Part shown: positions 17,338 through 44,218 of the stretch, in pieces
Position numbering within the stretch: the stretch's first letter is position 1
How the letters are laid out: the number at the start of each line of letters is the position of its first letter
Made by a program: the position numbers and the translations under genes
Assembly (NCBI GenBank): GCA_934613185.1
Contig: CAKTSO010000001.1
Span: 1 to 48,361, forward strand
Direction: 5' to 3'
DNA length: 48,361 bases
From: an uncultured Clostridia bacterium
GTDB lineage: Bacteria; Bacillota; Clostridia; Christensenellales; Maliibacteriaceae
Notes under the pieces: model-generated
The model's database searches: none
The model's input: only the letters and a program-made list of their open reading frames with translations
What the model was told of the DNA's origin: nothing

Positions 17338-17637
17338 TCAACCGATCCCGATGCGAACCAGAAGATAGCCGACGATCCCCGCGACCGCCGTCAAAAGCGC
17401 CTTTTCGATCACGGACTCCCAGCGCCGCGCGGGAACGAGCGTCAGCGCGCGAACGTCGTGCCGGATCTCGCCCAAATCGCGCTCCATGCGATCCTGCTTC
17501 GTGGCAAGCTGCGCCACGCTCGTCACGAGACGGTCGAGATCGTCCTGCCGCTTTTCCAGTCGCAAGACGCGGTGCGCGTTTTCCTCGATCGCCCGCGCGT
17601 TGTCGTGCACGGCGGCGATGAGCTGTTCATGCGTCAC
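17338..17637 (-). CDS. XhlA-like protein (coiled-coil with C-terminal TM anchor)
   Basis: ORF 17338..17769 trimmed to GTG 17637, preceded by GGGAAGGGAG. 99 aa: a coiled-coil (LRLEKRQDDLDRLVTSVAQLATKQDRMERDLGEIRHDV) plus the TM LLTAVAGIVGYLLV. Size and architecture match the PBSX XhlA family, from memory. Confidence 0.6.
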   Translation of the reverse strand: MTHEQLIAAVHDNARAIEENAHRVLRLEKRQDDLDRLVTSVAQLATKQDRMERDLGEIRHDVRALTLVPARRWESVIEKALLTAVAGIVGYLLVRIGIG

Positions 17638-17779
17638 AAAAATCACTCCCTTCCCCCGCCGGTCGGCCTTTGATGTCCGCCCCTGTGAGGCAACCATACC
17701 GCGCGCACGCCGCGTTCGCCAAGCGCGGCGGAAGTATTTTGGGAATTTTTTGAAGAAAAAACACGCCAAATTCGGCGCA

Positions 17780-17816: not shown

Positions 17817-18497
17817 TTACTTCTTTCGTTTTTTCAAAATCCCGTTCCAATGCACGAAACAGGTCAGATACCCGACCGCGCAAAGCGGCAGCGCGAAGAA
17901 GGCGTCCAGCACGGAATGCTGTTTCAAAAACACCGTCGAGGCGCAGATCAGGATCACAATGAGCCAGCAGGCGATCTGCCATACGGGGCGCTTATGAAAC
18001 ACGCCGCTGTCAAGGAGCGCAAACAGCGCCGCGAACGAGCCGATGACGTGGATCGACGGGCAGACGTTCGTGTTCGTGTCGATGGTATAGATCCACTCGG
18101 TCAACCGCGTCAGGAGATTGTCGCGCGGAAATTCCAGCGGCCGAAGCTGCTGACACGTCGGGTAGACAAGATAAACGATCCCCGTGACGATATACGTCAG
18201 CATAATGAACGCCATCGTGCGGCGGAACGTGTTCGGCGCGTAGATCGCGGCGAAGGCGAGGGAACCCGCGAGGAACACGAACCAGAAAAGATACGGCAAA
18301 AGGAACCATTCGCAAAACGGGATCGCGTCGTCCAGCGCGCAGTGCACGGGATGATACGGCCCGGCGAAGGCGTCCTCGATGACTTTGAAGAAGACGCCGA
18401 ACAGCGGCCAGAAGGCGAGCAGCCACAGGTGGCGATACTGTTTCTGATTCAATTTCGACAGGCGGAAGCCTTTGACGTCAATTTGAGGTTTCATCAT
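17817..18497 (-). CDS. PAP2-family membrane phosphatase
   Basis: The ORF-track start 18518 is a TTG; the first ATG is at 18497 and the true start is uncertain. Multi-TM, with motifs CPSIHV and KQHSVLD that fit the PAP2 C2/C3 signature. Confidence 0.75.
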   Translation of the reverse strand: MMKPQIDVKGFRLSKLNQKQYRHLWLLAFWPLFGVFFKVIEDAFAGPYHPVHCALDDAIPFCEWFLLPYLFWFVFLAGSLAFAAIYAPNTFRRTMAFIMLTYIVTGIVYLVYPTCQQLRPLEFPRDNLLTRLTEWIYTIDTNTNVCPSIHVIGSFAALFALLDSGVFHKRPVWQIACWLIVILICASTVFLKQHSVLDAFFALPLCAVGYLTCFVHWNGILKKRKK

Positions 18498-18632
18498 AGC
18501 TTGTTTTTCTCGTTTCAACCGGCGGTTTTTGCGCCGCGTTTTCGGGCGCGGGACTGGCTTTTCCTTCCCGTTTGACGGCGCGCTTTCGCGCGTCTTGCCG
18601 AGCGGGATTTCAAGGGTTCAAAACGCCATATG

Positions 18633-18781: not shown

Positions 18782-21475
18782 TCAAATGCTTTTTGAAAAC
18801 GGATTGCCGTTTTGATAGATCGTCTCTTCCACCGGATCGTAATAAAGCTCCATCGACTCCGCGATCCGCAGCATCTTGTCCTTCGGCAGACGAATGCCGT
18901 ATTCCGCCTCCAGCAGCGCAAGCAGCGCTTCCAGACGAATGCTGTCCCTGTCCCGAAGCAGCCAGGTCAGCATTCCCACAAAATTGCCGCCCGACGCGCC
19001 GTGCCGGAACATGCGCGTACCGCCGATCCGATAGCCCGAAAAATGCCGCGTATCTTCCATAAGAATCGACGCGTAAAACCATTCGTCGAACCCGAAGCGA
19101 TCCAGCGAATGTGAAAATCCCTTTTTGCGCAGCGACTGCACCGTGACGTATTCGTCGCCGCAGAATTCGTCGGCCGCCCTGCAATAGTCCAAAAGCTCGT
19201 CTTTCGTGATCCCGAGCGCGCACAGATGCCGTTCGTTCACATACTGCTGCGGCAGATATTCTACGATCCGATACGCCGCGCACAGGCGATGGCGCACGGT
19301 TGCGAACGTCGTAATGTTTCGAAACTGCGGATATTTCCGAAGATCGATCCTGTCTTCGCCCGTCAAAAACTTTTGAAAATAATCGACCGCGCCCGAAAAC
19401 GTGTTTTTCACAATATACCCCGAATAACCGGGATAAACGTGAAATCCGAGCGATTTTAGCGTATACGGATTCAGCGGCTCGTTCGCGGCGTTCGGGAATT
19501 CATGCCGATAAAGCGCCTCCGCCTGCCGGATGGTGTAAAAATCGCCCGTCAGGATCTGTTTCATCCGCCGATGCACGTCTTCGGGAAGCGGAACATAATC
19601 CACGCGGTAGCTTCCGTTATAATAATACGGATCGATGCACCCGAAATAATTGCCGCGAACCGTCGCGGCTTTGACGCCGTAGGTCTCCTCATAACGCATC
19701 GCAAGATCGTCCGCCCCGATCGGCGCATATTGCAGCAGAAGATCGTAAACCTGCGTCTTTACGTCCGCATTGCCGACCTTCACATTCGGCATTCTCTGAA
19801 ACGTCACGTTCGACGCTTCCTGCGGCCATATTTTCTTTAAAAGATTATGCAGTTCGTATTCATCCCGAATGTCATACCGGCGCATCAGCGCCGCATGATC
19901 CCGAAACAATCGCAACGTTGAAAACTCGACGTCGCGATACTGTTCCAAATCAAGTTCGCACAGCAGCTCCGAAAAATCATACTGTTCGATCGGATAATAC
20001 CGAAAATGCTTCCATTGATGCCAAAGCGTATACTCGCAGCCCGACAGCTTGTTTTCGTAAGCCTTCGATTCCAGCCGCAGCGAAGCTTCGCCCGCCAGCC
20101 CCAGTTCCGCCAGCCACGCATGATACCCGTCGACAAAATCCCGATACGCCGTCAAAAGCGCGCAGCGCGTCCGCACATAATGCCGCACCAGCTCGGGACG
20201 GCTCTTTTTCACATACGCGCCCTCCAAAAGCACATAATGCTTGAAGACCGCGCGCTCGGCCTGTTTTCGCACCCGAACGTCGATCGTCTCGTCCGTCAAA
20301 ATCGCTTCCAACGGCAGTTTATCGGCGCTCGGGACGGAATTTGTCATTTCCAGATAATAATACGTCTCCTGCGGCACATCGAACGCGAGCATAACGTCCT
20401 GTTTGGAAAAAAGATAGCGCTCAAACAGCGGAAGATAGCGGTCCTCTTGCAGATACGGCCTTTTTTGAAGCCATTTTTTGATCACCTGACGAACCCGTTC
20501 CCGCGTCACGCCGTAGCATCCGCCGATTTGTTCCAGCGTCATTCCCGCAAGGCGCCCCGACAAAATCTCGAGCGCGCGAATTTCTTCGATCGAGGCGATG
20601 TACTCGCGCACCGTCGGGTAACGCCGCCGCGCGATCATGCCGTCCCATTCGATCTTCCCCTCGCGTTCCGATTCCGACAGAAGTTCCCGCAAAACGCCGC
20701 CGGTTTCAAGATGCGGCGGCATCTGCACGGCAATCTGCGGCGCCGAAAGTCCTTCCCCCTCTTTTTCCAGAATCCGAAGGATCTTCCGCTTCGCCGCTTT
20801 CCGCACGCAGCTTTGTTCGTAAAACACGTTCACCGGCACGTCGTCCCGCGGCCCGTCTTTTCGGGAAGCCGCCCGCAAAAACGCGCGCAGCCAGACGTTT
20901 TCCGATCCTCCGTAAGCCGCCAGCGTCTGCGTCAATAAAGGCGGCGGCGCACCGTCCTTTGTCCGCCAGGCCACGCGCAGCTTCGCCAAATATGCGCTCG
21001 TCTGCCGCGCCGTTTTTTCACCCATCGAAGGCATCGCCGTCAATTCGTCAAACGACATGCCGACAAGCTCGGACGCCATGGCAAGGCCCGCCAGCGAAAA
21101 TCGATTTTTGGCGCGTTCGGAGATTGGAAGCGCCGCAATCGGAAGATCGCCGAGCACATTGCCTTTTTCGTCGATCAGAATGCATGCGGAACCGTCGCCC
21201 GCAAGATAGCCCCGCATCGGTTCGGGTTCCCTTTGCGGCAAAACGGCCTCTTTCTCGACCAGCCGATACGCCCCCGAGCCGTCTTTGAGCGTCTGCATCC
21301 AGGAGCGAACCTCGCGCGCCGTTTTCTCTCCCATATTTCGGATCGACAAAAGCCGCTCCGGCGGATAGGCAAGCAGTTCGCCGATCGTGTGAATGTTTTC
21401 GCTGTTTAAGCAGTGAATCGCCCGAACCGACAAAGGCAATGAAGTAATCTCGTCCCGACGGGTAAGATCGGTCAT
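18782..21475 (-). CDS. Large orphan protein: two RNA polymerase alpha-CTD-like HhH modules, a sigma-70 region-4-like HTH, and a ~550-aa unknown C-terminal region
   Basis: 897 aa with ATG at 21475 and a GAGGA RBS. Module 1 is LPLSVRAIHCLNSENIHTIGELLAYPPERLLSIRNMGEKTAREV. Module 2 is ISERAKNRFSLAGLAMASELVGMSFDELTAMPSMGEKTARQT. HTH is LAGMTLEQIGGCYGVTRERVRQVIKKW. Confidence 0.8.
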   Translation of the reverse strand: MTDLTRRDEITSLPLSVRAIHCLNSENIHTIGELLAYPPERLLSIRNMGEKTAREVRSWMQTLKDGSGAYRLVEKEAVLPQREPEPMRGYLAGDGSACILIDEKGNVLGDLPIAALPISERAKNRFSLAGLAMASELVGMSFDELTAMPSMGEKTARQTSAYLAKLRVAWRTKDGAPPPLLTQTLAAYGGSENVWLRAFLRAASRKDGPRDDVPVNVFYEQSCVRKAAKRKILRILEKEGEGLSAPQIAVQMPPHLETGGVLRELLSESEREGKIEWDGMIARRRYPTVREYIASIEEIRALEILSGRLAGMTLEQIGGCYGVTRERVRQVIKKWLQKRPYLQEDRYLPLFERYLFSKQDVMLAFDVPQETYYYLEMTNSVPSADKLPLEAILTDETIDVRVRKQAERAVFKHYVLLEGAYVKKSRPELVRHYVRTRCALLTAYRDFVDGYHAWLAELGLAGEASLRLESKAYENKLSGCEYTLWHQWKHFRYYPIEQYDFSELLCELDLEQYRDVEFSTLRLFRDHAALMRRYDIRDEYELHNLLKKIWPQEASNVTFQRMPNVKVGNADVKTQVYDLLLQYAPIGADDLAMRYEETYGVKAATVRGNYFGCIDPYYYNGSYRVDYVPLPEDVHRRMKQILTGDFYTIRQAEALYRHEFPNAANEPLNPYTLKSLGFHVYPGYSGYIVKNTFSGAVDYFQKFLTGEDRIDLRKYPQFRNITTFATVRHRLCAAYRIVEYLPQQYVNERHLCALGITKDELLDYCRAADEFCGDEYVTVQSLRKKGFSHSLDRFGFDEWFYASILMEDTRHFSGYRIGGTRMFRHGASGGNFVGMLTWLLRDRDSIRLEALLALLEAEYGIRLPKDKMLRIAESMELYYDPVEETIYQNGNPFSKSI

Positions 21476-26053: not shown

Positions 26054-27403
26054 TTATTTTTCGTGATTTTTCAAAAAAACGCGATAAAACTTCAGCCCCA
26101 CGAGCGTCGTCAGAATCTCGGTCACGGGGAACGTCAGCCAGAAATACGCAAGCCCGAACCGCGAAAACAGCCACCCAAGCGGCACGAACAGAACCACCGT
26201 GCGCACGATCGTCAAAATCGAGCTTTGCAGGCTTTCGCCCACGGCCTGAAAGAACACGGGGAACGTCAGCGACGGGACCATCGCCAGGAAGCTCGGCCCG
26301 ACGAATCGAAATCCCCATGAACCGATCTCGATCACGCAGGAATCGGACGTAAATACGCCGAGCATTTGCGCGGGGATCGTCAAAAAACATATCGTTCCCA
26401 GCGCCATCAGCCCCACGCCGAAGACGATCGCCGCGCGAAGCGTCTCGCGGCAGCGGCCGACGCTTTTTGCGGCATAGTTAAAACTGACGACGGGGACGAT
26501 GCACGTCTGCATCGCGCCCAGCGGGATGAAGAAGAACGTCTGCCATTTGTAATACAGGCCGAGCGCCGTGACCGCCTGATCGGAAAAGCCCGCCAGAATC
26601 AGATTCAGCCCCAATATATAGAACGTATAGGCCGACTGCATGAGGATGTTCGGCAGCCCGAGGCGGAAAATGCGCCCGACGTGATGCGGGAAAAGCGTCC
26701 ATTCCGGCGGCTTTCGGAAGCCTTTTTTCATGACGATCAGCGCCGCGGCGATCTGCCCGGCGACGGTCGCATACGCCGCGCCCGCCACGCCCAGTTCCGG
26801 CAGGCCGAACATGCCGAAGATCAGGATCGGATCGAAAACGATGTTCACCGCCGCGCCCGCAATCTGCGCGATCATCGGCGTCTTCATGTCGCCCTCGGAC
26901 TGCTGCACCTTCGTCCAGACGCTTTCGCAGAAAAGCCCGACGCTGAAGACGCAGACGATCCTTCCGTATTGCACGACGAGCGCCGCCACGGATTCGGAAT
27001 CCGTCGACATGCGCGCATAGGCGGGCAAAATCGCCCACGAAATGATCGCGAAGACGACCCATAAGACAAGCGCAAGCGGCGTGCCGACGCCCGCATATTC
27101 CTCGGCCTTGTCATTTCGACCGACGCCGCGCTTTGCCGCCATGATCGTGTTGATCCCGACGCCCGTGCCGACCGCCAGCGCGATCATCAAAAGCTGCAGG
27201 GGATAGACGATCGACAGCGCCGTCAGCCCTTCGCCCGAAAAGCGACCGACGAAGAAGCTGTCGACGATGTTGTAAAGCGCCTGAATGAGCTGCGCCAGCA
27301 TGACCGGCGGCGCGAGTTTCAATAAAATTCTGCCCACGGGCGCGCTTTGGAACAATTCATTCTGCGTCGTTTTCTCCATCTTATTTTTCATCGCTTTTTC
27401 CAT
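26054..27403 (-). CDS. MATE family efflux transporter
   Basis: 449 aa, 12 TM. N-terminal LKLAPPVMLAQLIQALYNIVDSFFVGR is typical of MATE/NorM proteins. GGAGGCGGAG RBS; the start overlaps the marR end. Confidence 0.9.
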   Translation of the reverse strand: MEKAMKNKMEKTTQNELFQSAPVGRILLKLAPPVMLAQLIQALYNIVDSFFVGRFSGEGLTALSIVYPLQLLMIALAVGTGVGINTIMAAKRGVGRNDKAEEYAGVGTPLALVLWVVFAIISWAILPAYARMSTDSESVAALVVQYGRIVCVFSVGLFCESVWTKVQQSEGDMKTPMIAQIAGAAVNIVFDPILIFGMFGLPELGVAGAAYATVAGQIAAALIVMKKGFRKPPEWTLFPHHVGRIFRLGLPNILMQSAYTFYILGLNLILAGFSDQAVTALGLYYKWQTFFFIPLGAMQTCIVPVVSFNYAAKSVGRCRETLRAAIVFGVGLMALGTICFLTIPAQMLGVFTSDSCVIEIGSWGFRFVGPSFLAMVPSLTFPVFFQAVGESLQSSILTIVRTVVLFVPLGWLFSRFGLAYFWLTFPVTEILTTLVGLKFYRVFLKNHEK

Positions 27404-27845
27404 GATTCTCCGCCTCCAGCGCCGAAAAAAGCGCCTCGTCGTATCGCGTCATAAGATCGATCAGCTTATCGAAATTCTCCTCGCCGAAATTTTTCGCCGC
27501 GCGCTCCTCCATTTTGCCGATGTCGGCCAAAAAAACCGCGGCGTAGTCCTTCCCCGCCGCCGTCAGGACGAACGCCTTCTCACGCCCGCGGGAATGTTCC
27601 GCGCTTTGTTCCAGCAGCCCCTCTTCGCGCATCGCGCAGATGACGTTGTGCATCGTCTGGCGCGGCAATAAATAACTGTCGCACATGCCCTTTTGCGTGC
27701 AATATCCAAGCTCGCGAATCGTATAAAGCACAAGCATTCGGTGATACCCGATCCCGTGCGCGCCCGCCCATGCGGCGTAGATCCCGCGGCAGGCAATGAT
27801 CGCGCGGTTGACGCGGTGATGCGCCGACAAAATCGTCCGATCCAT
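27381..27845 (-). CDS. MarR family transcriptional regulator
   Basis: ORF trimmed to ATG 27845 with a GGAGGA RBS. Winged-helix core is LVLYTIRELGYCTQKGMCDSYLLPRQTMHNVICAMREEGLLEQ...KAFVLTAAG. Confidence 0.85.
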   Translation of the reverse strand: MDRTILSAHHRVNRAIIACRGIYAAWAGAHGIGYHRMLVLYTIRELGYCTQKGMCDSYLLPRQTMHNVICAMREEGLLEQSAEHSRGREKAFVLTAAGKDYAAVFLADIGKMEERAAKNFGEENFDKLIDLMTRYDEALFSALEAENHGKSDEK

Positions 27846-27866
27846 CCAACGGTTCCTCCATGCGTT

Positions 27867-27908
27867 TAATCCCAAATGGGATTATAGCATGCCGACCGCC
27901 TCCGTCAA
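27867..27908 (-). promoter_or_regulatory. marR-MATE promoter with an operator palindrome overlapping the -10
   Basis: On the - strand: TTGACG (27903-27908), 16 nt, TATAAT (27881-27886). The perfect 8+8 inverted repeat taatccca-aa-tgggatta (27867-27884) overlaps the -10, consistent with autoregulation. Confidence 0.55.
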
Positions 27909-28324
27909 GCAAAGATCACGTAAGGGGGAAACCGTTTTGATCGGAAAAGGTGTGAAGGGGATTTCTTCGACACGTTTTCGCGTTCGACGAAACCATCGGC
28001 AGTCGAAACGGAATCCGTCCGCCCCCGCGCCGCAAACGCCCGAAACGAAAGCCGGCCGTCTTTTTCAAAAAGGAGCCGCCGCACGGAGTCCGTCCGGCAA
28101 AGGCGGCAATGCCGCGCCCGCGAAACAGCGCGGCATGAAAATCCGCACGCCGAGAAAAAACGTTGACGCGGGCGCACCGCTTTCAATCCGATCGGTTGTT
28201 TGGCCGTCCTGCCGTGCAGACACCCGCAGACGGTTCTTCCGCATAAACTGACGTTGAGGGAACGAATCCTCTTTTCGATCGTTTCCGCCTTTTCCAATCG
28301 ATTTTCAAGATTTTCAAAGAAGGG

Positions 28325-28885
28325 ATGCGTATGATTTCACAACCCGTATGGCGATGCGAAGATTTCACGTTCGACCGCGTCGCGCTGAGCGTGCCGCCCT
28401 GCGGTGCGAATGCGACGGGGATCGAGCGGTTTTCCATGCGCGTGCTGCGCTGTCACACGGGCGATTCGCCCGAGGGCGCGTGCTTTTGCCAGCTGCATCT
28501 TGTCGCCCGATTCCGCCTCGTTCTGATGTTTGACAACGGCGCACGATGCTGCACGCAGTTCGAGCGCCGCATCACGTTCACCGTTCCGCGCGGCGTATTC
28601 TGCGGGCGCTTCGGCATCTCGGGCGAAGTTTCGTCGATTGCGATCTGCCCCTGCCGCTGTGGCGCGACGGCGCGGATCGCCGCCAACATCTGCGTGTTCT
28701 CGCTTCCCGAGCGCGGGTGCTGTCTTCGCGATTGCGGCAGCCCGTGCGGCTGCTTAAGCGACGACGAAGACGACACATGGGACGCGCCGTGCCGCGGCGG
28801 CGTCGTGCTGCCCTATTCGCTCGGCAGCTCCTGCGGCGGGAACCGAAGCGTCGGCGTCACGTCCTCCTGCGGGTGCGGGCGATGA
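28325..28885 (+). CDS. Hypothetical cysteine-rich protein (about 21 Cys in 186 aa)
   Basis: GAAGGGA RBS, with ATG at 28325 or 28331. Third-codon positions are G/C-biased as in neighbouring real genes. The C-terminal half has CPCRCG, GCCLRDCGSPCGC and SSCGCG. No signal peptide or TM. Confidence 0.6.
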   Translation: MRMISQPVWRCEDFTFDRVALSVPPCGANATGIERFSMRVLRCHTGDSPEGACFCQLHLVARFRLVLMFDNGARCCTQFERRITFTVPRGVFCGRFGISGEVSSIAICPCRCGATARIAANICVFSLPERGCCLRDCGSPCGCLSDDEDDTWDAPCRGGVVLPYSLGSSCGGNRSVGVTSSCGCGR

Positions 28886-29118
28886 GTTGCCGATGCGGGA
28901 AGCCCCCGCGCATCATCGTGACCGATTGTCAGAACTGCCCGCGCCCCGTTGTGCCGCCGTGTTCGTGCGGGGGCGGGTGTGATCGTCCCTGTTCCATGCC
29001 GCCGCAGCCCGTGTGCGGCAGGCCGCCGTGCCGCGCGCCGAAGCTCTGCCCCTGCTGCGGCCGTCCGCTGCCCGAGTGGCCCGAGCCGCGCCCCATGCCG
29101 CCGCTTTGGCCGCGGTAA
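28882..29118 (+). CDS. Hypothetical Cys/Pro-rich small protein (78 aa; 13 Cys and 22 Pro by hand count)
   Basis: ATGA start/stop overlap with the upstream ORF at 28882-28885. Sequence is MSCRCGKPPRIIVTDCQNCPRP...CSCGGGC...CPCCGRP. Followed by a strong terminator. Confidence 0.55.
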   Translation: MSCRCGKPPRIIVTDCQNCPRPVVPPCSCGGGCDRPCSMPPQPVCGRPPCRAPKLCPCCGRPLPEWPEPRPMPPLWPR

Positions 29119-29124
29119 AAAAAG

Positions 29125-29180
29125 TCCATAACAAAAGCGCCGGGCATGCCGCCCGGCGCTTCGTTCTTCCGTTTTCGTTT
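29125..29180. terminator. Bidirectional intrinsic terminator (Cys-rich operon / M23 peptidase gene)
   Basis: 9-bp stem agcgccggg (29136-29144) / cccggcgct (29152-29160). A T-rich tract follows on + and an A-run upstream serves the - strand. Confidence 0.7.
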
Positions 29181-29185: not shown

Positions 29186-31123
29186 TCAGTTTTGCAGCAG
29201 ATAGTTGCGCGGATCGTACGCCGTGCCGCCAATGCGCACCTCAAAGTGCAGGTGGCTGCCGGTGGAGCGCCCCGTGCTGCCGACCAGCGCAATGACCTCG
29301 CCCTGGCTGACGGTCTGCCCGGCGGAGACCAGAAGCTGCGAACAGTGGCCGTAGCGCGTCATTTCCCCGTTGCCGTGGCTGATGTCGACGCAGTAGCCGT
29401 AGGAGCCGTTCCAGCCGGAGGCCGTCACCGTGCCGCTCTTGGCCGCGCGGATGGGCGTACCGGTGGGCGCGCCGATGTCGATGCCCGCGTGCAGGCGGCC
29501 CCAGCGATAGCCGAAGTTCGACGTGACGGTGCCGTTGGTGGGCGTCATGAAGCCGGAGGACGACACGCCCTGCACGATGATGCCGTAGCGCTTCGTGCCC
29601 TGCGCAACGACCTGGTTCGTCGCCGCTCGGATGACGTTCTCGCTCAGGACGGTGCGCTCGACCTCGGTCGAGCCGATGTAGCGGACCTCGACGGTCACTT
29701 CCTTTTCGCCGTTGACGCCCGCCTGGACGACGCGGCTCTGGCCGACGTAGAGCGAAGCGTCGGTGGTATATTCGGTGGCGAAGGCGATGCCCTCGTTGTA
29801 GGTCAGGATCTGCTTGCTGCCGACGTCGATGACGCTGTTTTGCGGAATGAGATTGAGCGTCATGCCCGCGGAAAGATCCTCGTTTGAGGAGACGCCGTCG
29901 TTGTCGGCGACAAGATCCGCCGCGGTGACGTTCTTCGCCAGGGCGATGCTGTCGAGCGTGTCGCCCTCGCGGACGGTGTAGGTATCGTTCTCGTCGACGC
30001 CCGTTTGCAGGAAGTTGAGCGCCTCGGTCTTGTTCTTCAAGAGCGAGCAGGACACGTCGCTTTGGCGGATCTCGACTTCCTGAACGAAGCCGATGTCCGT
30101 GGCGTTGTCGGCGTAGGGGGCCTTCAACTGTTCCAGAACCCAGTTGGCGTCCTCCTCGGTCGCGAAGGCGACGGCGGCCATGCCGTCGACATAGATGACG
30201 GAGGCGCTGACCTGCGCGTCGAGATTGCGGCGGATCTGCGCGCTGACATCCTCAACGCTGGAAAGATAGCGGCGGTCGACGCGCGTCTGCCGCACCTCCA
30301 GAAGCTGATCGTCCAGCACGGTCACGCCGTACTGCGCGGACAGGTCCTTGTAAATATCGTCGATGGCGGCCTGAACGTTGTCCTTGTCGGCGACCGTCCC
30401 GACGGCGATGCCGTTGACGTAGACCTCGCTTGCGTCGACGTAACGCGACGCGGGATCGAATCCGCCGAAGATCCAGAAGCCGATGACCGCGACGACTGCC
30501 GCGCCCACGGCGGACGCGACGGCGACGAGGCGGCGCGTATTCACGCGCGCATGGGTCTTCACATGGTTTTTCACCTGCGTCCGCACGGCGGAGGCGATCT
30601 TCTCGCCCAGCGCCGCGGTGCGCCCCGCGCGCTTGTTTTTGGCGCGTTTGGGCTGCGCCAGAGGCGCGACGCCGTCGATCTCTGGGATCAGATGCGTGTT
30701 TTCGTCGATGTCGCCGATGCCGAGCATGTCGTTCATGACGCGAAGATTCGACGGAATGACGTCGATGCTCTTTTCGGCCAGCGCGAGCGCCGAACGCACC
30801 GACGCAAACTGCGCGTGGCCGCCGTCGCGTGCGGGGGCGGAGACGTCCACGGGCGCAAGCTGACGGCGCATGCGGTCGGTATCCTCGAACGGATCGCGCG
30901 CGCGGGGACGGAAGGAATCGTCCATGCCCATATCAAAGCCGTCCAGGCTGTGCAGATCTTCAAACGCGGCGCTGTAATCGGTATAGCCGAAGGCGCTCAA
31001 GCTGCTTTGGGGGCGCCGCGGCTCGGCGTAGGGATAATCGCGGTTGACGGAGTAAAAACCGAACCCGCCGGAAGTTTCATAGGGCTGCGTCCGTTTGGCG
31101 GGATCGTTTGTTTTCGCCTGCAT
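29186..31123 (-). CDS. LysM-G5-M23 peptidoglycan DD-metalloendopeptidase family protein (paralog 1)
   Basis: 645 aa: cytoplasmic N-terminal region, one TM (LVAVASAVGAAVVAVIGFWIF), LysM (YTVREGDTLDSIA...LSAGMTLNL), G5-like (VVQAGVNGEKEVTVEVRY) and M23 (HAGIDIGAP...GSTGRSTGSHLHFEV). Confidence 0.9.
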   Translation of the reverse strand: MQAKTNDPAKRTQPYETSGGFGFYSVNRDYPYAEPRRPQSSLSAFGYTDYSAAFEDLHSLDGFDMGMDDSFRPRARDPFEDTDRMRRQLAPVDVSAPARDGGHAQFASVRSALALAEKSIDVIPSNLRVMNDMLGIGDIDENTHLIPEIDGVAPLAQPKRAKNKRAGRTAALGEKIASAVRTQVKNHVKTHARVNTRRLVAVASAVGAAVVAVIGFWIFGGFDPASRYVDASEVYVNGIAVGTVADKDNVQAAIDDIYKDLSAQYGVTVLDDQLLEVRQTRVDRRYLSSVEDVSAQIRRNLDAQVSASVIYVDGMAAVAFATEEDANWVLEQLKAPYADNATDIGFVQEVEIRQSDVSCSLLKNKTEALNFLQTGVDENDTYTVREGDTLDSIALAKNVTAADLVADNDGVSSNEDLSAGMTLNLIPQNSVIDVGSKQILTYNEGIAFATEYTTDASLYVGQSRVVQAGVNGEKEVTVEVRYIGSTEVERTVLSENVIRAATNQVVAQGTKRYGIIVQGVSSSGFMTPTNGTVTSNFGYRWGRLHAGIDIGAPTGTPIRAAKSGTVTASGWNGSYGYCVDISHGNGEMTRYGHCSQLLVSAGQTVSQGEVIALVGSTGRSTGSHLHFEVRIGGTAYDPRNYLLQN

Positions 31124-31230
31124 CGAAGCATCACCCTCCTTTTCAAAATTGCAAAAAGCGTTCCGCCGCGCACACGAGAAAAAAGAGCGCTGTCTTTTTG
31201 TACGCGGTCTTACAAGGTTTTGTAGGTTCT

Positions 31231-31259
31231 ATTATAGAGTTGTTACGGAATTATTACAA
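31231..31259 (-). promoter_or_regulatory. Sigma-A-type promoter of M23 paralog 1
   Basis: On the - strand: TTGTAA (31254-31259), 17 nt, TATAAT (31231-31236), then AGAACC. The same architecture occurs at paralog 2. Confidence 0.55.
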
Positions 31260-31332
31260 CTAAATTCGCAAAATCATTGTAAAAAATTTATTTAATTTTT
31301 ATTTTCGCAGACGCAGCCGCCCGTTTTCGCCG

Positions 31333-31375
31333 CAAAAAAGCCCCGCATCGTTCCCCGTCGGGAAACGCTGCGGAG
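31333..31375 (-). terminator. Intrinsic terminator of M23 paralog 2
   Basis: Imperfect long hairpin: ccgcatcg/cgctgcgg enclosing ttccc/gggaa, 31343-31373. A 6-nt U-run follows on the - strand. Confidence 0.6.
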
Positions 31376-31384
31376 CTTTCGGTT

Positions 31385-33433
31385 TTAGAAGTTGACGTAA
31401 TTTCTCGGATCCTGCGCCGTGCCGTTGACGCGCACCTCAAAGTGCAGGTGGTTGCCGGTGGACACGCCGGTGGAGCCGACGAGGGCGATCTGCGCGCCCT
31501 GCGAGACGTACTGCCCGGTGGAGACGAGCACGCGCGAGCAGTGGCCGTATCTTGTGACGACGCCGTCGCCGTGATCGATCTGCACCATGTAACCGTAGCC
31601 GCCGTTCCAGCCGGCGTAGGTGACGCGTCCGGCGCGGGTGGCCATGATGGGCGTGCCGTAGCCGACGCCGATGTCGATGCCGTAATGATAGGAGCTGGCG
31701 CCCGCGGTCGGGCGGTTGCGCCGGCCGAAGCCGGAGGTGATCGTGCCGCCGTTGACGGGGCGAAGATATCCGCGCGCGGAGACATTGCTCGGGCGCTTCT
31801 GCGTGCCCTTGACGATGATCTCGGTGACGGGTTCGACGGTCACGACTTGTGACAGCGTCTCGCGGGAGACCTCCGCGCCGTTGATGTAATTGATCTGAAT
31901 GGTGGACTTGCGCTCGCCGTCGCTGCCCTTTTGACGCACGACGGTCTGGTCGGAATACATCGAGTCGTCCGTGATCGTCTGCGTCTCGTGCGTCAAAGTC
32001 TCTGTGACTTCGATGACGCGCTCGGACGAGACGTTCAGGAGTTTTTGCGGGCGCATGAGCGAAAGCTCCATGCCGACGCTTAAATTGTCGGTATTCGCGA
32101 CCGCCGGGTTCGCCGTGCGAAGCTCCGCGACGGTGTAGCCGTTTTTCTCGGCGATCGACCAGAGCGTGTCGCCGGAGGCGACGGTATAGGTCTGCGCGGT
32201 CTCGACGCCGACATTCAAAAGCTGATAGGCCTCTTCCTTCGTGCGAAGGAGGCTGTAGTCGACGTCCTTCTGCTCGATGGAGACGTCCTCCAGGAACTTC
32301 GTCTCGGTGATCCCGTCGCCGCCGGAATAGGGCGCAAGCGTCTCGTCGAGCACCCACTGGGCGTCCTCCCGCGTCTCCAGCGCGACCGCCGACATGCCGT
32401 CGATGTCGATGACGACGGCGTTGACGCAGATTTCGATGTTGCGGCGCACCTCCTGCGCCACGGCGTCCGCGGAGCTGACGTATTTGGGATCGACCATCGC
32501 GTCGCGAAGATCGAGCGTCTGATCGGCAAGAACGTTGACGCCGTATTCGGTGCTGAGCTGTTCATACAGCGCCTCGACGCAGCTTTTTAATTCCTCCGCG
32601 TCCATGACCGTGCCGACGGGGTGGCCGTCGAAATAGACTTCCTTGGCGGCGACGTAATTGCGGGAGGCGTCGAACAGACCCTGATACCACGCCAGGATCA
32701 CGCCGCCGCAGGCGAGAACGAGCGCACCGCAGACGCTGCCCGCCGCGATCCACGCGCCGCGGCCGGAACGCTTCTTTTTCGGTGCGGCGCTGCATGCTTT
32801 TTCCACGCGGCGGCCGACGCGTTTTTCCGTGCGGTCGAGATGCCTTGCGCCGAACAGGCGCTCGCGCAACGTCTTTTTTCGGCGGGCGGGGCGAAGCATG
32901 GCCATGCGCGCGTTTTCATACGGGGCAAGCACGCTGTCGTCGCCCACGGCGCGCTTGATCTGCGCGGAATAATCCGCGCGCGGCGTGCCGTCTTCGTCGA
33001 AGCGGACGGGCGGCATGGACGCGGTGTCCGCCATATTTCGCGAGGCGGGACGGGGCGGCCGGTGCAGCGCGTTCAGCGCCTGCGCGGCCTCGTCGAGCGC
33101 GGCGGAAGCGCCTCGGGCCTGCGCGTCGACGTCAAGGTCGACGATGTTGCCCGACAGGTCGACCATGCGCATGGTGTTCCCGAGGTTCGCCTGCCCCTCG
33201 ATCGCCTGCATGCGGATCGTGTGCTGGCTCAATTCCATCGCGGGCGGCGCGCCCTGCAGGTTCTGCCCGCTTTGCGCCGAATCGAGCGGGCGAAGCGGCT
33301 TGGGCTGTTTCGCATCCGCGCCTTTCGTTTGTTTTATTGCCTTCAGGCGGCGCAGCCACGCGGGGCCGACCCAGCGGAAGCGATATTTTTTCTTCGCTTT
33401 CCGCTCGCCGTCGTTGTTTTTATTGAAATGCAT
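31385..33433 (-). CDS. LysM-G5-M23 peptidoglycan DD-metalloendopeptidase family protein (paralog 2)
   Basis: The ORF-track start 33469 is a TTG. ATG 33433 (MHFNKNNDGERK) has a GGAGG RBS 8 nt upstream. Same TM-LysM-G5-M23 layout (YTVASGDTLWSIA, VVRQKGSDGERKSTIQINY, HYGIDIGVG...GSTGVSTGNHLHFEV). Confidence 0.9.
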   Translation of the reverse strand: MHFNKNNDGERKAKKKYRFRWVGPAWLRRLKAIKQTKGADAKQPKPLRPLDSAQSGQNLQGAPPAMELSQHTIRMQAIEGQANLGNTMRMVDLSGNIVDLDVDAQARGASAALDEAAQALNALHRPPRPASRNMADTASMPPVRFDEDGTPRADYSAQIKRAVGDDSVLAPYENARMAMLRPARRKKTLRERLFGARHLDRTEKRVGRRVEKACSAAPKKKRSGRGAWIAAGSVCGALVLACGGVILAWYQGLFDASRNYVAAKEVYFDGHPVGTVMDAEELKSCVEALYEQLSTEYGVNVLADQTLDLRDAMVDPKYVSSADAVAQEVRRNIEICVNAVVIDIDGMSAVALETREDAQWVLDETLAPYSGGDGITETKFLEDVSIEQKDVDYSLLRTKEEAYQLLNVGVETAQTYTVASGDTLWSIAEKNGYTVAELRTANPAVANTDNLSVGMELSLMRPQKLLNVSSERVIEVTETLTHETQTITDDSMYSDQTVVRQKGSDGERKSTIQINYINGAEVSRETLSQVVTVEPVTEIIVKGTQKRPSNVSARGYLRPVNGGTITSGFGRRNRPTAGASSYHYGIDIGVGYGTPIMATRAGRVTYAGWNGGYGYMVQIDHGDGVVTRYGHCSRVLVSTGQYVSQGAQIALVGSTGVSTGNHLHFEVRVNGTAQDPRNYVNF

Positions 33434-33484
33434 TCGCAAGACCTCCGTGAAACGGCGCTTTTTCTCCAAAAGACGCCCGGTTCT

Positions 33485-36265: not shown

Positions 36266-37219
36266 ATGAACGAAAATCTTCCCAATGCGGTGCTGTGCGT
36301 CGGGATGCTCAACTGCGACGTCTTTTTCCGCAACACACCGAAAAACCTCATGCACACCGACACGTCCTTCATGCGCGACGTGACGATGCTCGTCGGCGGC
36401 GACGCGGCGAACGTCTCGCAGAACCTCGCGCACATGGGCATCACCTCCTATCTTGCCGCGAACGTCGCGGGCGACGTGTTCGGGCAGCATGTCTGCGACA
36501 CGCTCGAGGGCGAAGGCGTGGACACCCGCTTCGTGCGCCGCGACAGCGAGACCGGCACGGCCGTGAGCCTGTTTTTCTATGACACGGACGGCAAAAAGCA
36601 CTGCGGCGCGTTCCGCGGCGGCAACCGTTCGTTCCGTCCCGACATGGTGACCGACGAGATGTTGAAATCCGCGCGGCACATGCACATCGGTTCGTTCGTG
36701 ACGCTCGAAAGCTTTATCGGGCAGCCCGCCGAAAATCTGATCCGCCGCGCAAAGGCGCTCGGGCTGACCGTCTCCGCCGACATCTCCGGCGGCAGCGCGG
36801 CCGACCGCGACACGATGCGCCGCGTCATCCCGCTTTGCGACGTGTTCACGATGAACGAAGAGGAGACGCTCGAATTGACGAACGAAACCGACATGAAGCG
36901 CGCCTCGGAAAAGCTTCGCGAATTCGCACCCACGCTTTTGATTTTGAAGCAGGGCGCACGCGGCGTCTTCGTCACGGATTTCAAGGGCTATGAAAAGCAG
37001 TTCGCGCCCCTCGCGCGGCCCGAAGAGGTCAAAGACGCCGTCGGCGCGGGCGATTCTTTCATTTCCGGCTACATCGCCGCGCTCCTTCACGGGGAAAGCC
37101 GCGACGAGTGCATCAAGACCGGCTCCGCCGCGTCCGCGATCTGCATTTCGGATTTCGGCGCGTCCAACTGGAAGGTCTCCTATGAACAAGTCCGCGCCTT
37201 TGCTGCGGAGCGCGCCTGA
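36266..37219 (+). CDS. PfkB-family kinase paralog K1 (most divergent; canonical NxxE)
   Basis: 317 aa. Motifs GGDAANVS (GG motif), VFTMNEEE (NxxE) and DAVGAGDSFISG (GAGD catalytic motif). Confidence 0.85.
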   Translation: MNENLPNAVLCVGMLNCDVFFRNTPKNLMHTDTSFMRDVTMLVGGDAANVSQNLAHMGITSYLAANVAGDVFGQHVCDTLEGEGVDTRFVRRDSETGTAVSLFFYDTDGKKHCGAFRGGNRSFRPDMVTDEMLKSARHMHIGSFVTLESFIGQPAENLIRRAKALGLTVSADISGGSAADRDTMRRVIPLCDVFTMNEEETLELTNETDMKRASEKLREFAPTLLILKQGARGVFVTDFKGYEKQFAPLARPEEVKDAVGAGDSFISGYIAALLHGESRDECIKTGSAASAICISDFGASNWKVSYEQVRAFAAERA

Positions 37220-37238
37220 GACGCGGGAGGTAGTGACA

Positions 37239-38204
37239 ATGCAGAAACGTTTTGACATTCTTTGCATGGGCATCGGCTGCTACGACGTCGTCGTGCGCCA
37301 TCTGCCCGCGGATTTCATGGAACAAAGCGTCGTCCCCATCGGCGATATCACCACTTCCACCGGCGGCGACGCGCTGAACGCCTCCGTCGATCTGACGCGT
37401 CTTGGCGCGAAAACCGGCTTTTTGACCGTTCTCGGGAACGATGCCTGGGGCAAGAGCGTCCTGGCCGATCTCGCGCAAAAGGGCGTGGATACCTCCGCCG
37501 TTCAGGTGCGCGACGACTTCAGCACCTGCGTCAGCTACGTTCTCGTCGAGAAAAACGGCGACCGTCATTTTGCCGTCAACTTCCCCGAGAACCCTCTTCC
37601 TCTTCACAACAGCGACATCTCCGACGAGCTTCTTGCCTCCACGCGGCACATTCATGCGGCAAGCTGCAATGCGCTGGGGTCGATGGACGACGAGCTGGAC
37701 GTCCTGTTCCGCCGCGCGCACGAGATGGGCGTGACCACGAGCATGGATACCGGCGCGGACCCCACGGGCCGCTGGTTCGACCGCATTCGAGAGACGATCA
37801 AATACTGCGACATCTTCTTCCCGAGCCACTACGAGGCGGCGGCCTACTGCGGCGGCGAAACGGATGTTTTGAAGATGAAGGAATTCTTCCGCGACAAGGG
37901 CGTGAAGATCTTCGGCGTGAAGCTGGGCGCGGACGGCGTGTTCGTCACCGACTTTAAAGAGGACATCTTCATGAAGCCGCTGTTCACCGGCACGCCCGTG
38001 GACACCACCGGCGCGGGCGACGCGTTCTGCTCGACGTTCGTGGCGGGCATCGTGCGCGGCATGAGCATGCACGACGCGGCGGCGCTGGGGCAGGCGCAGT
38101 CGGCGCACATCATCCGCACCGTCGGCGCGAACAACGGCGCGGTCGACATCCATACCCTCGTGGAATACGCAAAGGGCTACGGATACGATCTGGATATCAA
38201 ATAA
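37239..38204 (+). CDS. PfkB-family kinase paralog K2
   Basis: ORF 36990..38204 trimmed to ATG 37239 (GGGAGG RBS). Motifs TGGDALNAS, VTTSMD, FFPSHYE and DTTGAGDAFCST. Confidence 0.85.
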   Translation: MQKRFDILCMGIGCYDVVVRHLPADFMEQSVVPIGDITTSTGGDALNASVDLTRLGAKTGFLTVLGNDAWGKSVLADLAQKGVDTSAVQVRDDFSTCVSYVLVEKNGDRHFAVNFPENPLPLHNSDISDELLASTRHIHAASCNALGSMDDELDVLFRRAHEMGVTTSMDTGADPTGRWFDRIRETIKYCDIFFPSHYEAAAYCGGETDVLKMKEFFRDKGVKIFGVKLGADGVFVTDFKEDIFMKPLFTGTPVDTTGAGDAFCSTFVAGIVRGMSMHDAAALGQAQSAHIIRTVGANNGAVDIHTLVEYAKGYGYDLDIK

Positions 38205-38222
38205 TCGTTGTATTTCAACATC

Positions 38223-38262
38223 ATCCGCACGGGAAAATCGCTTTCCGTGCGGATTTTTCTTT
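38223..38262 (+). terminator. Intrinsic terminator after K2
   Basis: 10-bp stem atccgcacgg (38223-38232) / ccgtgcggat (38245-38254), then TTTTCTTTG. Confidence 0.75.
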
Positions 38263-38275
38263 GTGTTTTCTGGTT

Positions 38276-38554
38276 AGCTGCTTTCAAATAAGAAAACAAT
38301 CGTCAAAAAATATGGCATAACATGTGAAATCCTTTAAACCCACACATGCAATTTCTAAAACAAAAGTACATTTTTATAGATTCACATCATCAAAATGCCT
38401 TATTTTTTGATGCTTGCAGTTTTAAGCTAGAGATTTTTTGTTTTTGGCTAAGTGAAAAGCGGAGGCGACGCCGGAAGCGTCGTTGAGCATTTTCACAACG
38501 CCAAAACGGAAAAGATCAGCTTAAAACCGATTGTTTTCTTTTTTGAAGGCAGCT
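38276..38554. repeat. AT-rich 279-bp element bounded by 27-nt inverted repeats, with an internal ~109-nt long hairpin (MITE-like or structured RNA)
   Basis: The left arm agctgctttcaaataagaaaacaatcg (38276-38302) matches the reverse complement of 38528-38554 at 25 of 27 positions. An inner imperfect hairpin spans 38419-38527, with a gttttaagct/agcttaaaac base, a gtgaaaa/ttttcac helix and a cgacgc/gcgtcg tip. An additional hairpin catcaaaa/ttttgatg lies at 38387-38411. Confidence 0.6.
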
Positions 38555-38584
38555 TTAGTCATTTCTTTTTTTGACTGTTTCATA

Positions 38585-38590
38585 TATAAT
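38585..38590 (+). promoter_or_regulatory. Candidate -10 box of the L,D-transpeptidase gene
   Basis: TATAAT lies within tatataataga, the same extended context as the K3 promoter. No convincing -35 at 17-nt spacing. Confidence 0.35.
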
Positions 38591-38634
38591 AGACACGCGA
38601 TTTGCGATCTATCGGTTAAAGGAGCAATCATTCG

Positions 38635-39651
38635 ATGCAATCCGTCAAGCGGCGGCCCGTATGGGCCCTGATGGCAATCTTACTTGCGGCGGCGGCCGTG
38701 TTTTCCGGCTGCGCGAAGCGCGGCGTGGACGCGTCCGTCCCCTCGCCCGAACCTTCGTATGCGCAAAGCGAAATCGAAAATGCGCTGAGCGGCAGCGTGC
38801 AGGAAGCGCTGGCGCTGTTTGAAAAACAGCAGGAGGGCGCGGACGGCGCGGCACAGAACTTCCCGAAGACTTCCGTTTCCGCCGCGGCGCCCGAGGCGGA
38901 GCAATCGCCCGAGCCGACGCCCACGCCGACGATCCCGCAGGTGTCGTCCCAGATGCCGTACATGATCGCCATCTACATCGGCTCTCAGCGCGTCGTGGTC
39001 TATCAAAAGGACGCGGACGGCGCCTACACCGTCCCCGCGCGCGTGTTCACCGTCTCCACCGGTCTTGGCAGCAACACCATTTTGGGCCAGTATAAAATTC
39101 AGAGCCGCTGGCGCTGGCTTCCCATGCACGGGATCTACTGCCAGTACGTCACGCAGTGGAGCGGCAACTATCTGTTCCACTCCGTCATGTATTCCCAGAC
39201 CGACCCGTCGACGATGGATCGAAGCGCCTACAACCGCTTGGGCAGCAAGGCCTCCGCGGGCTGCATCCGCATGACCGTACGCGACGCCAAATGGATCTAC
39301 GACAACTGCGGCCGCGGCACCTATGTCATCGCGACGAACGATTCCTGCCCGCCCGGCACGCCCGGAAGCAGCGGCGTCCCGCCGCTGACGCTCGACGTGC
39401 GCTGGGATCCGACCGATCCCGACCCGCGCAATCCCTACATCACGGGGCTGCCCACGCCGACACCCGCGCCCGAACCGACGCCCGCGCCCGAACCGACGCC
39501 CGTCCCGAGCCCGAGCGAAGAACCGACGCCCGTCCCGAGCGAAACGCCGAGCCCGACGCCGACGCCCGCCCCGAGCGAAGCGCCCACACCCACTCCCGTG
39601 CCGACGCCGACGCCCGCGCCGCCCGAGCCTTCGCCCGGCGCGGAAAACTGA
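38635..39651 (+). CDS. L,D-transpeptidase (YkuD domain) lipoprotein with a Pro/Thr/Glu-rich C-terminal tail
   Basis: 338 aa. Lipobox FSGC. YkuD core is IAIYIGSQRVVVYQKD...LFHSV...GSKASAGCIRMTVRDAKWIY (catalytic His and Cys). Tail is PTPAPEPTPAPEPTPVPSPSEEPTPVPSETPSPTPTPAP. Confidence 0.85.
   Translation: MQSVKRRPVWALMAILLAAAAVFSGCAKRGVDASVPSPEPSYAQSEIENALSGSVQEALALFEKQQEGADGAAQNFPKTSVSAAAPEAEQSPEPTPTPTIPQVSSQMPYMIAIYIGSQRVVVYQKDADGAYTVPARVFTVSTGLGSNTILGQYKIQSRWRWLPMHGIYCQYVTQWSGNYLFHSVMYSQTDPSTMDRSAYNRLGSKASAGCIRMTVRDAKWIYDNCGRGTYVIATNDSCPPGTPGSSGVPPLTLDVRWDPTDPDPRNPYITGLPTPTPAPEPTPAPEPTPVPSPSEEPTPVPSETPSPTPTPAPSEAPTPTPVPTPTPAPPEPSPGAEN
39451..39640 (+). repeat. Coding short tandem repeats (Pro/Thr/Glu linker)
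   Basis: The 18-mer cccgcgcccgaaccgacg is tandem at 39463-39480 and 39481-39498. The 21-mer gaaccgacgcccgtcccgagc occurs at 39490-39510 and 39520-39540. Confidence 0.75.
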
Positions 39652-39663
39652 ACAGACGCTTTT

Positions 39664-39699
39664 CGGCGAACCGGATTTCCCCCCGGTTCGCCGTTTTTA
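39664..39699 (+). terminator. Intrinsic terminator after the L,D-transpeptidase gene
   Basis: 11-bp stem cggcgaaccgg (39664-39674) / ccggttcgccg (39683-39693), then TTTTT. Confidence 0.75.
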
Positions 39700-39711
39700 T
39701 ATCGATTTCAT

Positions 39712-39740
39712 TTCAAAACCGCGCGGTTTCGTTATATAAT
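39712..39740 (+). promoter_or_regulatory. Sigma-A-type promoter of K3
   Basis: TTCAAA (39712-39717), 17 nt, TATAAT (39735-39740). Confidence 0.55.
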
Positions 39741-39766
39741 AGAAGCTGAAAGTGAGTGCGGCTATC

Positions 39767-40717: not shown

Positions 40718-40795
40718 GAAGAAATCTTGCGGGAAGCATCCCTTTCAGAAAAAGGGCTGCAAGCCGCGGTCAATTACATTGCTTGAGAGAACGGC

Positions 40796-41135: not shown

Positions 41136-41245
41136 GGTCCTCGACATCCGAAGCCCCACAAGCTCCCGCCGTCATTTCTACACTCCCCGATCTTACGGCG
41201 CATTTGCGCTCAAACGATAGAAACAAACCCACACGGAGGACATCC

Positions 41246-42196: not shown

Positions 42197-42216
42197 CTTT
42201 TTTCGGAGGTTTTGCG

Positions 42217-44213: not shown

Positions 44214-44218
44214 TCGGT

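Follow-up and report, generated by a model that had tools for sequence, protein, structure and literature searches.

An overlapping pair of cysteine-rich genes behind a SigK-like promoter motif in an uncultured Clostridia bacterium: a candidate component of the spore envelope

This study concerns two cysteine (Cys)-rich open reading frames, ORF1 and ORF2, on contig CAKTSO010000001.1 of an uncultured Clostridia bacterium (GenBank assembly GCA_934613185.1; order Christensenellales, family Maliibacteriaceae). The whole stretch of 48,361 nucleotides that was analysed is called the window, and positions refer to it unless another locus is named. A preliminary description, made from the sequence alone, had placed ORF1 at 28325-28885 (+; 186 amino acids (aa), 21 Cys) and ORF2 at 28882-29118 (+; 78 aa, 13 Cys and 22 proline (Pro) residues), and had reported that the two share an ATGA at 28882-28885 (+); the sequence agrees in each of these points. 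The ribosome-binding site (RBS) named before ORF1, AGAAGGG (28318-28324, +), was also read off the sequence. It abuts the ATG at 28325 directly and is separated by 6 nt from a second ATG at 28331. Public collections (NCBI, ENA, Logan) hold ORF1 as a 184-aa form that starts at 28331, and the 186-aa form is found in none of them. Because of this RBS spacing and because only the 184-aa form is present in these collections, ATG 28331 is most likely the start codon, so that ORF1, the founding member of its family, would extend from 28331 to 28885.

Further signals frame the pair. A G-rich stretch that resembles a Shine-Dalgarno (SD) sequence, GGGTGCGGG (28871-28879, +), lies within the last codons of ORF1, 2-6 nt 5' of the ORF2 ATG. 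The dedicated bidirectional terminator of the preliminary description was recovered as an intrinsic terminator hairpin at 29135-29161 (both strands) with an 11-bp GC stem, T-rich tails on both strands and folding energies of -24.8 kcal/mol (+) and -26.3 kcal/mol (-) (z about -3.4 to -3.5). It is located between the stop of ORF2 (29118) and the stop of a convergent M23 peptidase gene (29186) and is common to both transcription units. The G/C bias at third codon positions was also confirmed: GC3 is 0.80 for ORF1 and 0.84 for ORF2, both within the span of 0.71-0.87 seen for window genes with Pfam support, and the GC content at codon positions 1 and 2 is 0.58-0.72.

Judged by their substitution patterns, ORF1 and ORF2 are real genes under purifying selection. 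A relative that is 83 % identical to the window pair was found on a 2-kb contig (L001), where both ORFs are present, the ATGA overlap is intact and ORF2 carries a single-codon indel. The changes between both sequences are distributed over codon positions 1/2/3 as 22/12/37 in ORF1 and 8/4/16 in ORF2, and the ratio of nonsynonymous to synonymous substitution rates (dN/dS) is 0.34 for ORF1 and 0.28 for ORF2, compared with ratios of 1.07-2.04 in the two other plus-strand frames. As these other-frame ratios are above 1, a long alternative ORF at 28546-29118 was ruled out as the reading frame 5' of 28882. A second clade with about 43 % identity (P0004, P0007 and P0008 on loci L005-L009, L012, L013 and L015) yielded dN/dS values of 0.09-0.13 for ORF1 and 0.17-0.29 for ORF2 at a dS of about 1 or more. 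Homologues of ORF2 were identified in 12 loci by translating the DNA 3' of the ORF1 homologues, and every ORF2 indel seen among the relatives is a multiple of 3. Gene finders had called no ORF2 homologue in any locus examined, and in L001 the gene caller had put a wrong-frame ORF over it. Frame-specific selection and in-frame indels thus uphold the earlier case for real genes, which had been built on codon bias, RBS and terminator.

Every locus with an ORF2 also has an overlap of stop and start codons, which reads ATGA in L001-L004 and TGATG or TAATG in the loci of the second clade. In L005, L012 and L013, an SD-like GGGGGGTG precedes the ORF2 start as the counterpart of the G-rich stretch in the window. 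The preliminary description had named the lack of homologues with a conserved reading frame as the result that would speak against the pair; such a frame was found, and related genomes preserve both the pair and the coupling of stop and start. Overlap, internal SD-like stretch, one promoter box and one terminator were all observed, as expected for a translationally coupled bicistronic operon, and from this arrangement we infer translational coupling of ORF1 and ORF2. A third clade, more distant in ORF1, consists of P0006 and P0009 on loci L010, L011 and L014.

To the preliminary description the two ORFs belonged to no recognisable family, and database scans gave the same picture: Pfam and NCBIfam scans of both ORFs and a Pfam scan of seven ORF1-family members remained without a match, as did comparisons of ORF1 and ORF2 with PHROGs and PADLOC. 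A HMMER scan of 1.84 billion representative proteins returned five ORF1 matches, one of them (P0005; 494 aa, seven matched stretches) a low-complexity repeat protein that was discarded as spurious. A profile search of 5.8 billion clusters revealed eight ORF1-family clusters. No match was obtained when the JGI metagenomes were scanned with the ORF1 alignment; the ORF2 alignment was too variable to serve as a query there. Scanning the GTDB genomes with ORF1 alone gave no match, and the ORF1 alignment detected one of 185,579 species genomes, a human-gut metagenome-assembled genome (MAG) labelled Christensenella sp., which is the sole named genome with a family member. For ORF2, which is unannotated in public protein collections, a word-index search of the 5.8 billion clusters yielded no word-sharing candidate, and the exact sequence is absent among 15 billion proteins. 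By the measure of these sequence searches, the ORF1 family is very small, lineage-restricted and sequence-novel.

The structure of ORF1 was predicted with AlphaFold2, using a 7-sequence alignment and two runs with different target sequences. Both models contain six long antiparallel strands at about residues 9-126 with a predicted local distance difference test score (pLDDT) of about 60-84, followed by a tail with a pLDDT below 35. ORF1 is thus modelled as a six-strand beta domain of ~125 aa (28331-28702, +) and a disordered, acidic Cys/Gly-rich tail (28703-28882, +; isoelectric point (pI) 4.4, 15 % Cys). The family-invariant residues (186-aa numbering) F16, D17, C43, G46, D47, C53, Q56, H58, R62, F63 and P88-R89-G90 are all located in the predicted beta domain. 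The tail varies in length from 46 to 106 aa across the family, and its Cys positions differ between clades; in the two clades with ORF2 it has a pI of 4.1-5.1 and 15-21 % Cys, and whole ORF1-family proteins contain 10.7-16.4 % Cys. As stated in the preliminary description, neither ORF1 nor ORF2 has a signal peptide or a transmembrane segment (Kyte-Doolittle 19-residue maximum mean 1.39 and 0.46, respectively). A separate observation concerns P0003, which is encoded on a 1.9-kb metagenomic scaffold (L004:1220-1866): here, ORF1 residues 87-186 follow in frame on residues 1-37 of a Fer2_4 (2Fe-2S) protein, and the ORF2 behind them is intact. The scaffold is either a chimeric assembly or a true rearrangement that has lost most of the beta domain, and P0003 was not accepted as a trustworthy domain fusion.

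The ORF2 homologues are 75-79 aa long, basic (pI 8.5-9.1; 8.9 in the window) and contain 14-30 % Cys as well as Trp or Phe. Identity between the two clades is 36-45 %. Conserved between them are the N-terminus (M-x-C-x-C-G-..-R-[IVLM]-I-[VL]-..-C-x-[ND]-C), a Q-x-V-C-x-x-P-P motif and a C-terminal [LF]-[FWL]-P-[RD]. Pro-richness (26-29 %) is confined to the window clade. The Cys count ranges from 11 to 23 in the family, with eight invariant Cys columns and most positions unconserved; such variability in number and position fits a compositional cross-linking role. In both clades with the pair, the ORF1 tail and ORF2 are charge-complementary and Cys-dense. Two further candidates were dropped. 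A possible relationship between the ORF2 N-terminus and ORF1 residues 110-123 (CRCG..RI....C; E 0.025 in a single comparison) found no support in a profile-profile comparison, and a second ORF2-like Cys-rich ORF at 37987-38151 (-) is antisense to a PfkB gene and spurious.

The preliminary description had proposed a search for SigE- or SigK-type sporulation promoters upstream of the pair, and this search was positive. In an alignment of the upstream regions of seven ORF1-family loci from three clades, GCATAnAnT is the sole conserved block, present in 7/7 loci within diverged flanks. This candidate -10 box reads GCATAAACT in the window (28241-28249, +) and GCATACAAT or GCATATAGT in the other loci. 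An AC dinucleotide, the candidate -35 element (28222-28223, + in the window), is positioned 18 nt (17 in L001) 5' of CATA, again in 7/7 loci. Mother-cell promoters of Clostridioides difficile share a CATA-type -10 (e.g. CATATAAT), and their -35 is AC in the SigK type and ATA in the SigE type (Saujet et al., PMC3789822), and 16-18 bp is the classical spacing of these promoters (PMC3789822). An ATA as in SigE-type -35 elements is present in none of the seven loci. At the SigA -35 position, 0-2 of 6 bases match TTGACA in every locus, and there is no TG extension. At the level of the motif, the SigK pattern of -35 AC, 16-18 bp and CATA-type -10 is therefore present, and AC-N17/18-GCATAnAnT fits a SigK-type mother-cell promoter. 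For the composite motif, 0.375 occurrences are expected per 48-kb window on both strands. Three were observed, and the two besides that of ORF1 lie within genes; the argument therefore rests on positional conservation and not on rarity. The 9-mer CCGCATAAA occurs once in the window (0.49 expected). A neighbouring MarR-like gene (27381-27875, -) has a near-consensus extended SigA promoter, TTGACG-16-TGnTATAAT, at 27881-27908 (-) with 11/12 matches, which indicates that housekeeping promoters look ordinary here.

Promoter and ORF1 are separated by a leader of about 80 nt, of which 28250-28317 (+) is the untranslated part 5' of the RBS. Only 4/90 positions of 28241-28330 differ from L001, compared with a raw synonymous difference of 24 % in ORF1 (P = 6e-7), which suggests that the leader is constrained beyond promoter and RBS. 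An Rfam scan gave one chance match for the leader (E 0.46) and only a tRNA elsewhere in the window. A weak hairpin at 28256-28271 has a z of 0.36 in the window and of -2 to -3 in the L005 clade; being significant in the latter only, it was rejected as a general feature of the family. Just 5' of the RBS, at 28300-28317, the 9-nt sequence GATTTTCAA is repeated twice in tandem (three copies in L002/L003), and GAAAGGA is conserved as the RBS counterpart in other clades.

The genes around the pair encode ordinary Firmicutes functions, namely DnaB_2/DnaD-type and DnaI-type replication proteins, two LysM-G5-M23 peptidases, a PfkB kinase array, MatE and ABC exporters and TetR and MarR-like regulators. 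The L005 clade keeps DnaB_2, DnaI and two M23 peptidases near the pair. The pair has the opposite orientation there, however, and its flanking genes are GIY-YIG and YchF, so that no neighbour is a conserved functional partner. The earlier statement that no transporter, radical-SAM or lanthipeptide genes are adjacent was correct for radical-SAM genes, none of which is nearby, and has to be amended for transporters: a MatE and two ABC exporters are encoded 1-7 kb upstream on the other strand. As these transporters are not syntenic in relatives, they were considered irrelevant to the pair. Two contigs of the same species (L016 and L017), which carry the window protein 43248-44213 in identical form, extend the view to the right. 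They contain a gene of the Coat_F (PF07875) spore-coat family at a distance of about 5.7 kb from the window's right end (L016:20781-20966, L017:20493-20671), and about 45 nt 5' of its ATG lies tccGCATAAAT, which shares the 9-mer CCGCATAAA with the ORF1 promoter.

Two readings had been offered in the preliminary description, a spore-surface pair and a metal-sequestering pair. The first gained support from the promoter motif, the Coat_F gene with CCGCATAAA and the conservation of the pair; the second remained without support, as the Cys positions are mostly unconserved and no metallothionein match was obtained. We give an even chance to the interpretation that the pair forms a late-sporulation, charge-complementary and disulfide-crosslinking part of the spore envelope, either coat or exosporium. 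Promoter, leader, ORF1, ORF2 and terminator would then make up a self-contained operon that becomes active at a late stage of sporulation in the mother cell, where RNA polymerase with a mother-cell sporulation sigma factor of the SigK type would transcribe the pair. Termination-reinitiation at the ATGA would supply ORF2 beside ORF1 in a roughly fixed proportion. The beta domain of ORF1 might oligomerise or self-assemble, and basic ORF2 could dock electrostatically onto the acidic Cys-rich ORF1 tails. Once the spore leaves the reducing surroundings of mother cell and gut, dense intermolecular disulfides would lock the assembly as a resistant layer. The absence of a signal peptide or transmembrane segment fits deposition from the mother-cell cytoplasm.

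A more far-reaching version of this interpretation is tentative and, in our view, rather doubtful. According to it, the pair would be a new two-component building block of the endospore surface, in which a self-assembling new beta fold, unrelated to SPOCS, CotY/ExsY and Ena subunits, is combined with a separately encoded, stoichiometrically co-translated basic hyper-Cys 'staple' that cross-links the acidic tails. The pair would then also be a marker of true spores in a gut Christensenellales-like lineage described as non-sporulating.

Strong precedents for such a layer exist. Like the pair, CdeC and CdeM of C. difficile are Cys-rich, are made in the cytoplasm of a Clostridia-class anaerobe and have no signal peptide. 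We take CD1067 and CD1581 to be these two Cys-rich exosporium proteins (PMC6101409). A SigK promoter has been mapped for CD1067, and CD1581 drops 100-fold in a sigK mutant (PMC3789822), so both are SigK-dependent, and the pair has a SigK-like promoter motif. CdeC and CdeM reportedly self-assemble and are cross-linked by disulfides in the outermost spore layer (PMC7677010, PMC6101409), a behaviour that is only proposed for the pair here. In contrast to these likenesses, Pfam, NCBIfam and profile searches revealed no sequence similarity between CdeC/CdeM and the pair. CdeC is much larger than ORF1, the Cys share of ORF2 (14-30 %) is well above that of CdeC/CdeM, and cdeC and cdeM are not known to be translationally coupled.

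The SPOCS (DUF3794) proteins of Clostridium, among them CsxA and CsxC of C. sporogenes (CdeC and CsA/CsB were counted with this group as well), combine an all-beta core with many Cys, as seen in the ORF1 models, and in content ORF1 and ORF2 both reach the high Cys level of SPOCS-type proteins. For the SPOCS proteins, trimer-based lattices with cooperative disulfides have been proposed (bioRxiv 10.64898/2026.09.03.749163; PMC7333573). However, CsxA has 24 Cys per subunit and is far larger than ORF1, which is accompanied by a separate hyper-Cys peptide, and no Pfam match, DUF3794 included, was found at E <= 10 for ORF1 or any of the seven members. The SPOCS fold forms an intertwined trimeric 'tripod'; ORF1 was modelled as a monomer and shows six long beta strands. 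When a Bacillus subtilis CotE sequence was compared with the PDB copy, no entry matched, so the PDB fold search is silent on SPOCS membership. The all-beta models are compatible with a very divergent SPOCS relative as well as with a new fold.

CotY, CotZ and ExsY of Bacillus, with a size of about 150-190 aa, come from another taxonomic class. Their Pfam model is unmatched by the ORF1 family at E <= 10, and ORF1 differs in its architecture of predicted beta domain and disordered tail. They are similar to the pair in being small and Cys-rich, and they are described as self-assembling, disulfide-stabilised formers of two-dimensional lattices from the mother cell (PMC5434927); for ORF1, assembly is only proposed. 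CdeC/CdeM, CsxA/CsxC and CotY/ExsY are unrelated or barely related Cys-rich proteins that self-assemble into disulfide-stabilised spore layers (PMC7333573; bioRxiv 10.64898/2026.09.03.749163). By analogy, the pair would resemble Cys-rich spore-envelope proteins in function, and it is not demonstrably homologous to them.

Several observations weigh against a role in the spore envelope. No ORF2 was found 3' of the ORF1 homologues of the third clade (L010, L011, L014), so the pair is not obligatory. Pfam-A hmmscan at E <= 10 assigned no family to any of the seven ORF1-family members, which leaves them without detectable homology to a known spore protein. A PDB sequence search with both profiles gave one chance match (E 0.45), and Foldseek found no structural match in the PDB for the two ORF1 models (best E 0.03, TM <= 0.26). 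Neither the 48-kb window nor the 20-kb syntenic loci contain a sporulation gene, and the region upstream of Coat_F lacks an AC at the expected -35 position. The promoter motif is short, and its TAnAnT core (TACAAT, TATAGT, TAAACT) could also serve as a SigA -10. Moreover, forespore promoters of the SigF/SigG type have GCATA as their -35, which makes the compartment uncertain; a forespore promoter of this kind was judged less likely, as the downstream -10 candidates fit poorly by hand inspection. Named Christensenella species, finally, are reported not to form spores (PMC11536998). The literature is divided here: spore formation has been predicted for some MAGs of Christensenellales (PMC12536801), and Sun et al. 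used an ethanol pre-treatment, prompted by genome annotation, to isolate Christensenellaceae (PMC11085954); a G+C content of 61.0 mol%, similar to that of the window, is given for one of the genera they newly described (PMC11085954).

Among the other explanations, metal binding survives best, and we regard it as unlikely. Here, the two proteins would bind Zn, Cu, Cd or Fe-S in a metallothionein-like manner and serve storage or detoxification in vegetative cells or in the spore. The Cys content of ORF2, arranged in CC, CxC and CxxC motifs, and of the ORF1 tail (14-30 % and 15-21 %) would suit this function, the invariant C43, C53 and H58 of the beta domain could form a metal site, and free thiols persist in an organism of the strict-anaerobe type. 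Bacterial metallothioneins (SmtA/BmtA type, MymT) are, like ORF2, short, fast-evolving and very rich in Cys with CxC and CxxC motifs. In contrast to them, ORF2 is strongly basic, Pro-rich in the window clade (26-29 %) and equipped with the aromatic residues Trp or Phe, its Cys number (11-23) and most of its Cys positions are unconserved between clades, and it is coupled to a structured beta protein behind a sporulation-type promoter. Searches of Pfam and NCBIfam gave no metallothionein or other metal-binding family at E <= 10. Furthermore, synteny across clades does not extend to any metal-responsive regulator or transporter, and the conserved promoter is of the sporulation type instead of the repressor-controlled SigA type.

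A vegetative or stress function unrelated to spores is distinctly unlikely. In this case, the pair would act as a thiol redox buffer or oxidant sensor and would be transcribed by SigA from a -10-only promoter, for which the TAnAnT core is a fair -10; the window without a sporulation gene and the unproven sporulation of the lineage would agree with it. What argues against SigA are the invariant GCA before TAnAnT and the invariant AC at -35, both non-SigA features, together with the missing TG extension and the 0-2/6 matches at -35 in seven loci. A near-perfect SigA promoter is found at the neighbouring gene, and the same CCGCATAAA box precedes the Coat_F gene.

Very improbable is a locus for a ribosomally synthesised and post-translationally modified peptide, with ORF2 as an exported Cys-modified precursor (thioether, ranthipeptide or SCIFF-like) and ORF1 as its partner or scaffold. 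Like SCIFF/ranthipeptide precursors, which are small Cys-rich Clostridia peptides that often go unannotated, ORF2 is small, rich in Cys and overlooked by gene finders, and ABC exporters are encoded 3-7 kb away in the window. These transporters, however, are encoded on the opposite strand, beyond three unrelated genes, and the syntenic L005 locus lacks them. In the vicinity there is no radical-SAM, lanthipeptide, cyclodehydratase or peptidase gene, and a radical-SAM maturase is missing near the pair in the window as well as in L005/L006. ORF2 has no NCBIfam match to SCIFF (TIGR03973-type) or any other precursor family; it is longer than SCIFF peptides, lacks their conserved C-terminal six-Cys core and is conserved most at its two ends instead of in a leader-plus-core pattern, and nothing enzyme-like matches ORF1. 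That the ORFs are open by chance in GC-rich DNA, or that the true gene lies on the other strand, is effectively refuted: many overlapping ORFs exist here in all six frames and gene finders skip ORF2 or, in L001, call a different frame, but purifying selection is frame-specific in two independent clade comparisons, indels are in frame, start, stop and overlap are conserved with RBS and terminator in place, and the antisense frame with the same third positions lacks a start context and continues across the terminator.

Some additional features of the region were noted. The convergent neighbour of the pair belongs to two tandem paralogous LysM-G5-Peptidase_M23 genes (29186-33469, -; 645 and 694 aa), which adjoin the ORF1-family gene in the L005 clade as well, in opposite relative orientation. 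In L001, an insert of about 570 bp (L001:1145-1710), absent from the window, separates the ORF2 homologue from the M23 peptidase gene; it consists of two ~300-bp tandem units with CTTCCCCTnnnAGGGGAAG-type palindromes (four copies) and looks like a miniature inverted-repeat transposable element or a repetitive extragenic palindromic element. Further downstream (36266-46166, +), paralogous carbohydrate kinase genes of the PfkB family, about seven to eight in a row, form an array that is interrupted by a YkuD L,D-transpeptidase gene (38635-39651) and is also present in the same-species contigs. An 897-aa protein (18782-21475, -) carries an N-terminal domain like that of the RNA polymerase alpha C-terminal domain and a sigma-70 region 4 helix-turn-helix; it matches BREX PglW and the sigma factor MzaA of the MZA system weakly and in part, and may be a multidomain protein related to defence or regulation. 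Three ORFs at 11880-14090 (-), 17338-17769 (-) and 17817-18518 (-), with 736, 143 and 233 aa, have a coding-like GC3 and no Pfam or NCBIfam match.

Should the spore-envelope interpretation be wrong, the pair would still be a validated orphan operon of narrow taxonomic reach. ORF2 in particular, which is under selection, conserved in at least two clades and absent from 15 billion proteins, is a clean case of a small extreme gene that gene callers miss or misframe. If the interpretation is correct, the pair would add a sequence-novel and possibly fold-novel member to the unrelated Cys-rich proteins that have been recruited for disulfide-hardened spore layers, in a variant where a separate translationally coupled mini-protein supplies much of the cysteine. 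For an uncultured gut lineage that is associated with health and whose spore formation is debated, it would also provide a marker of sporulation and a promoter motif that can be tested.

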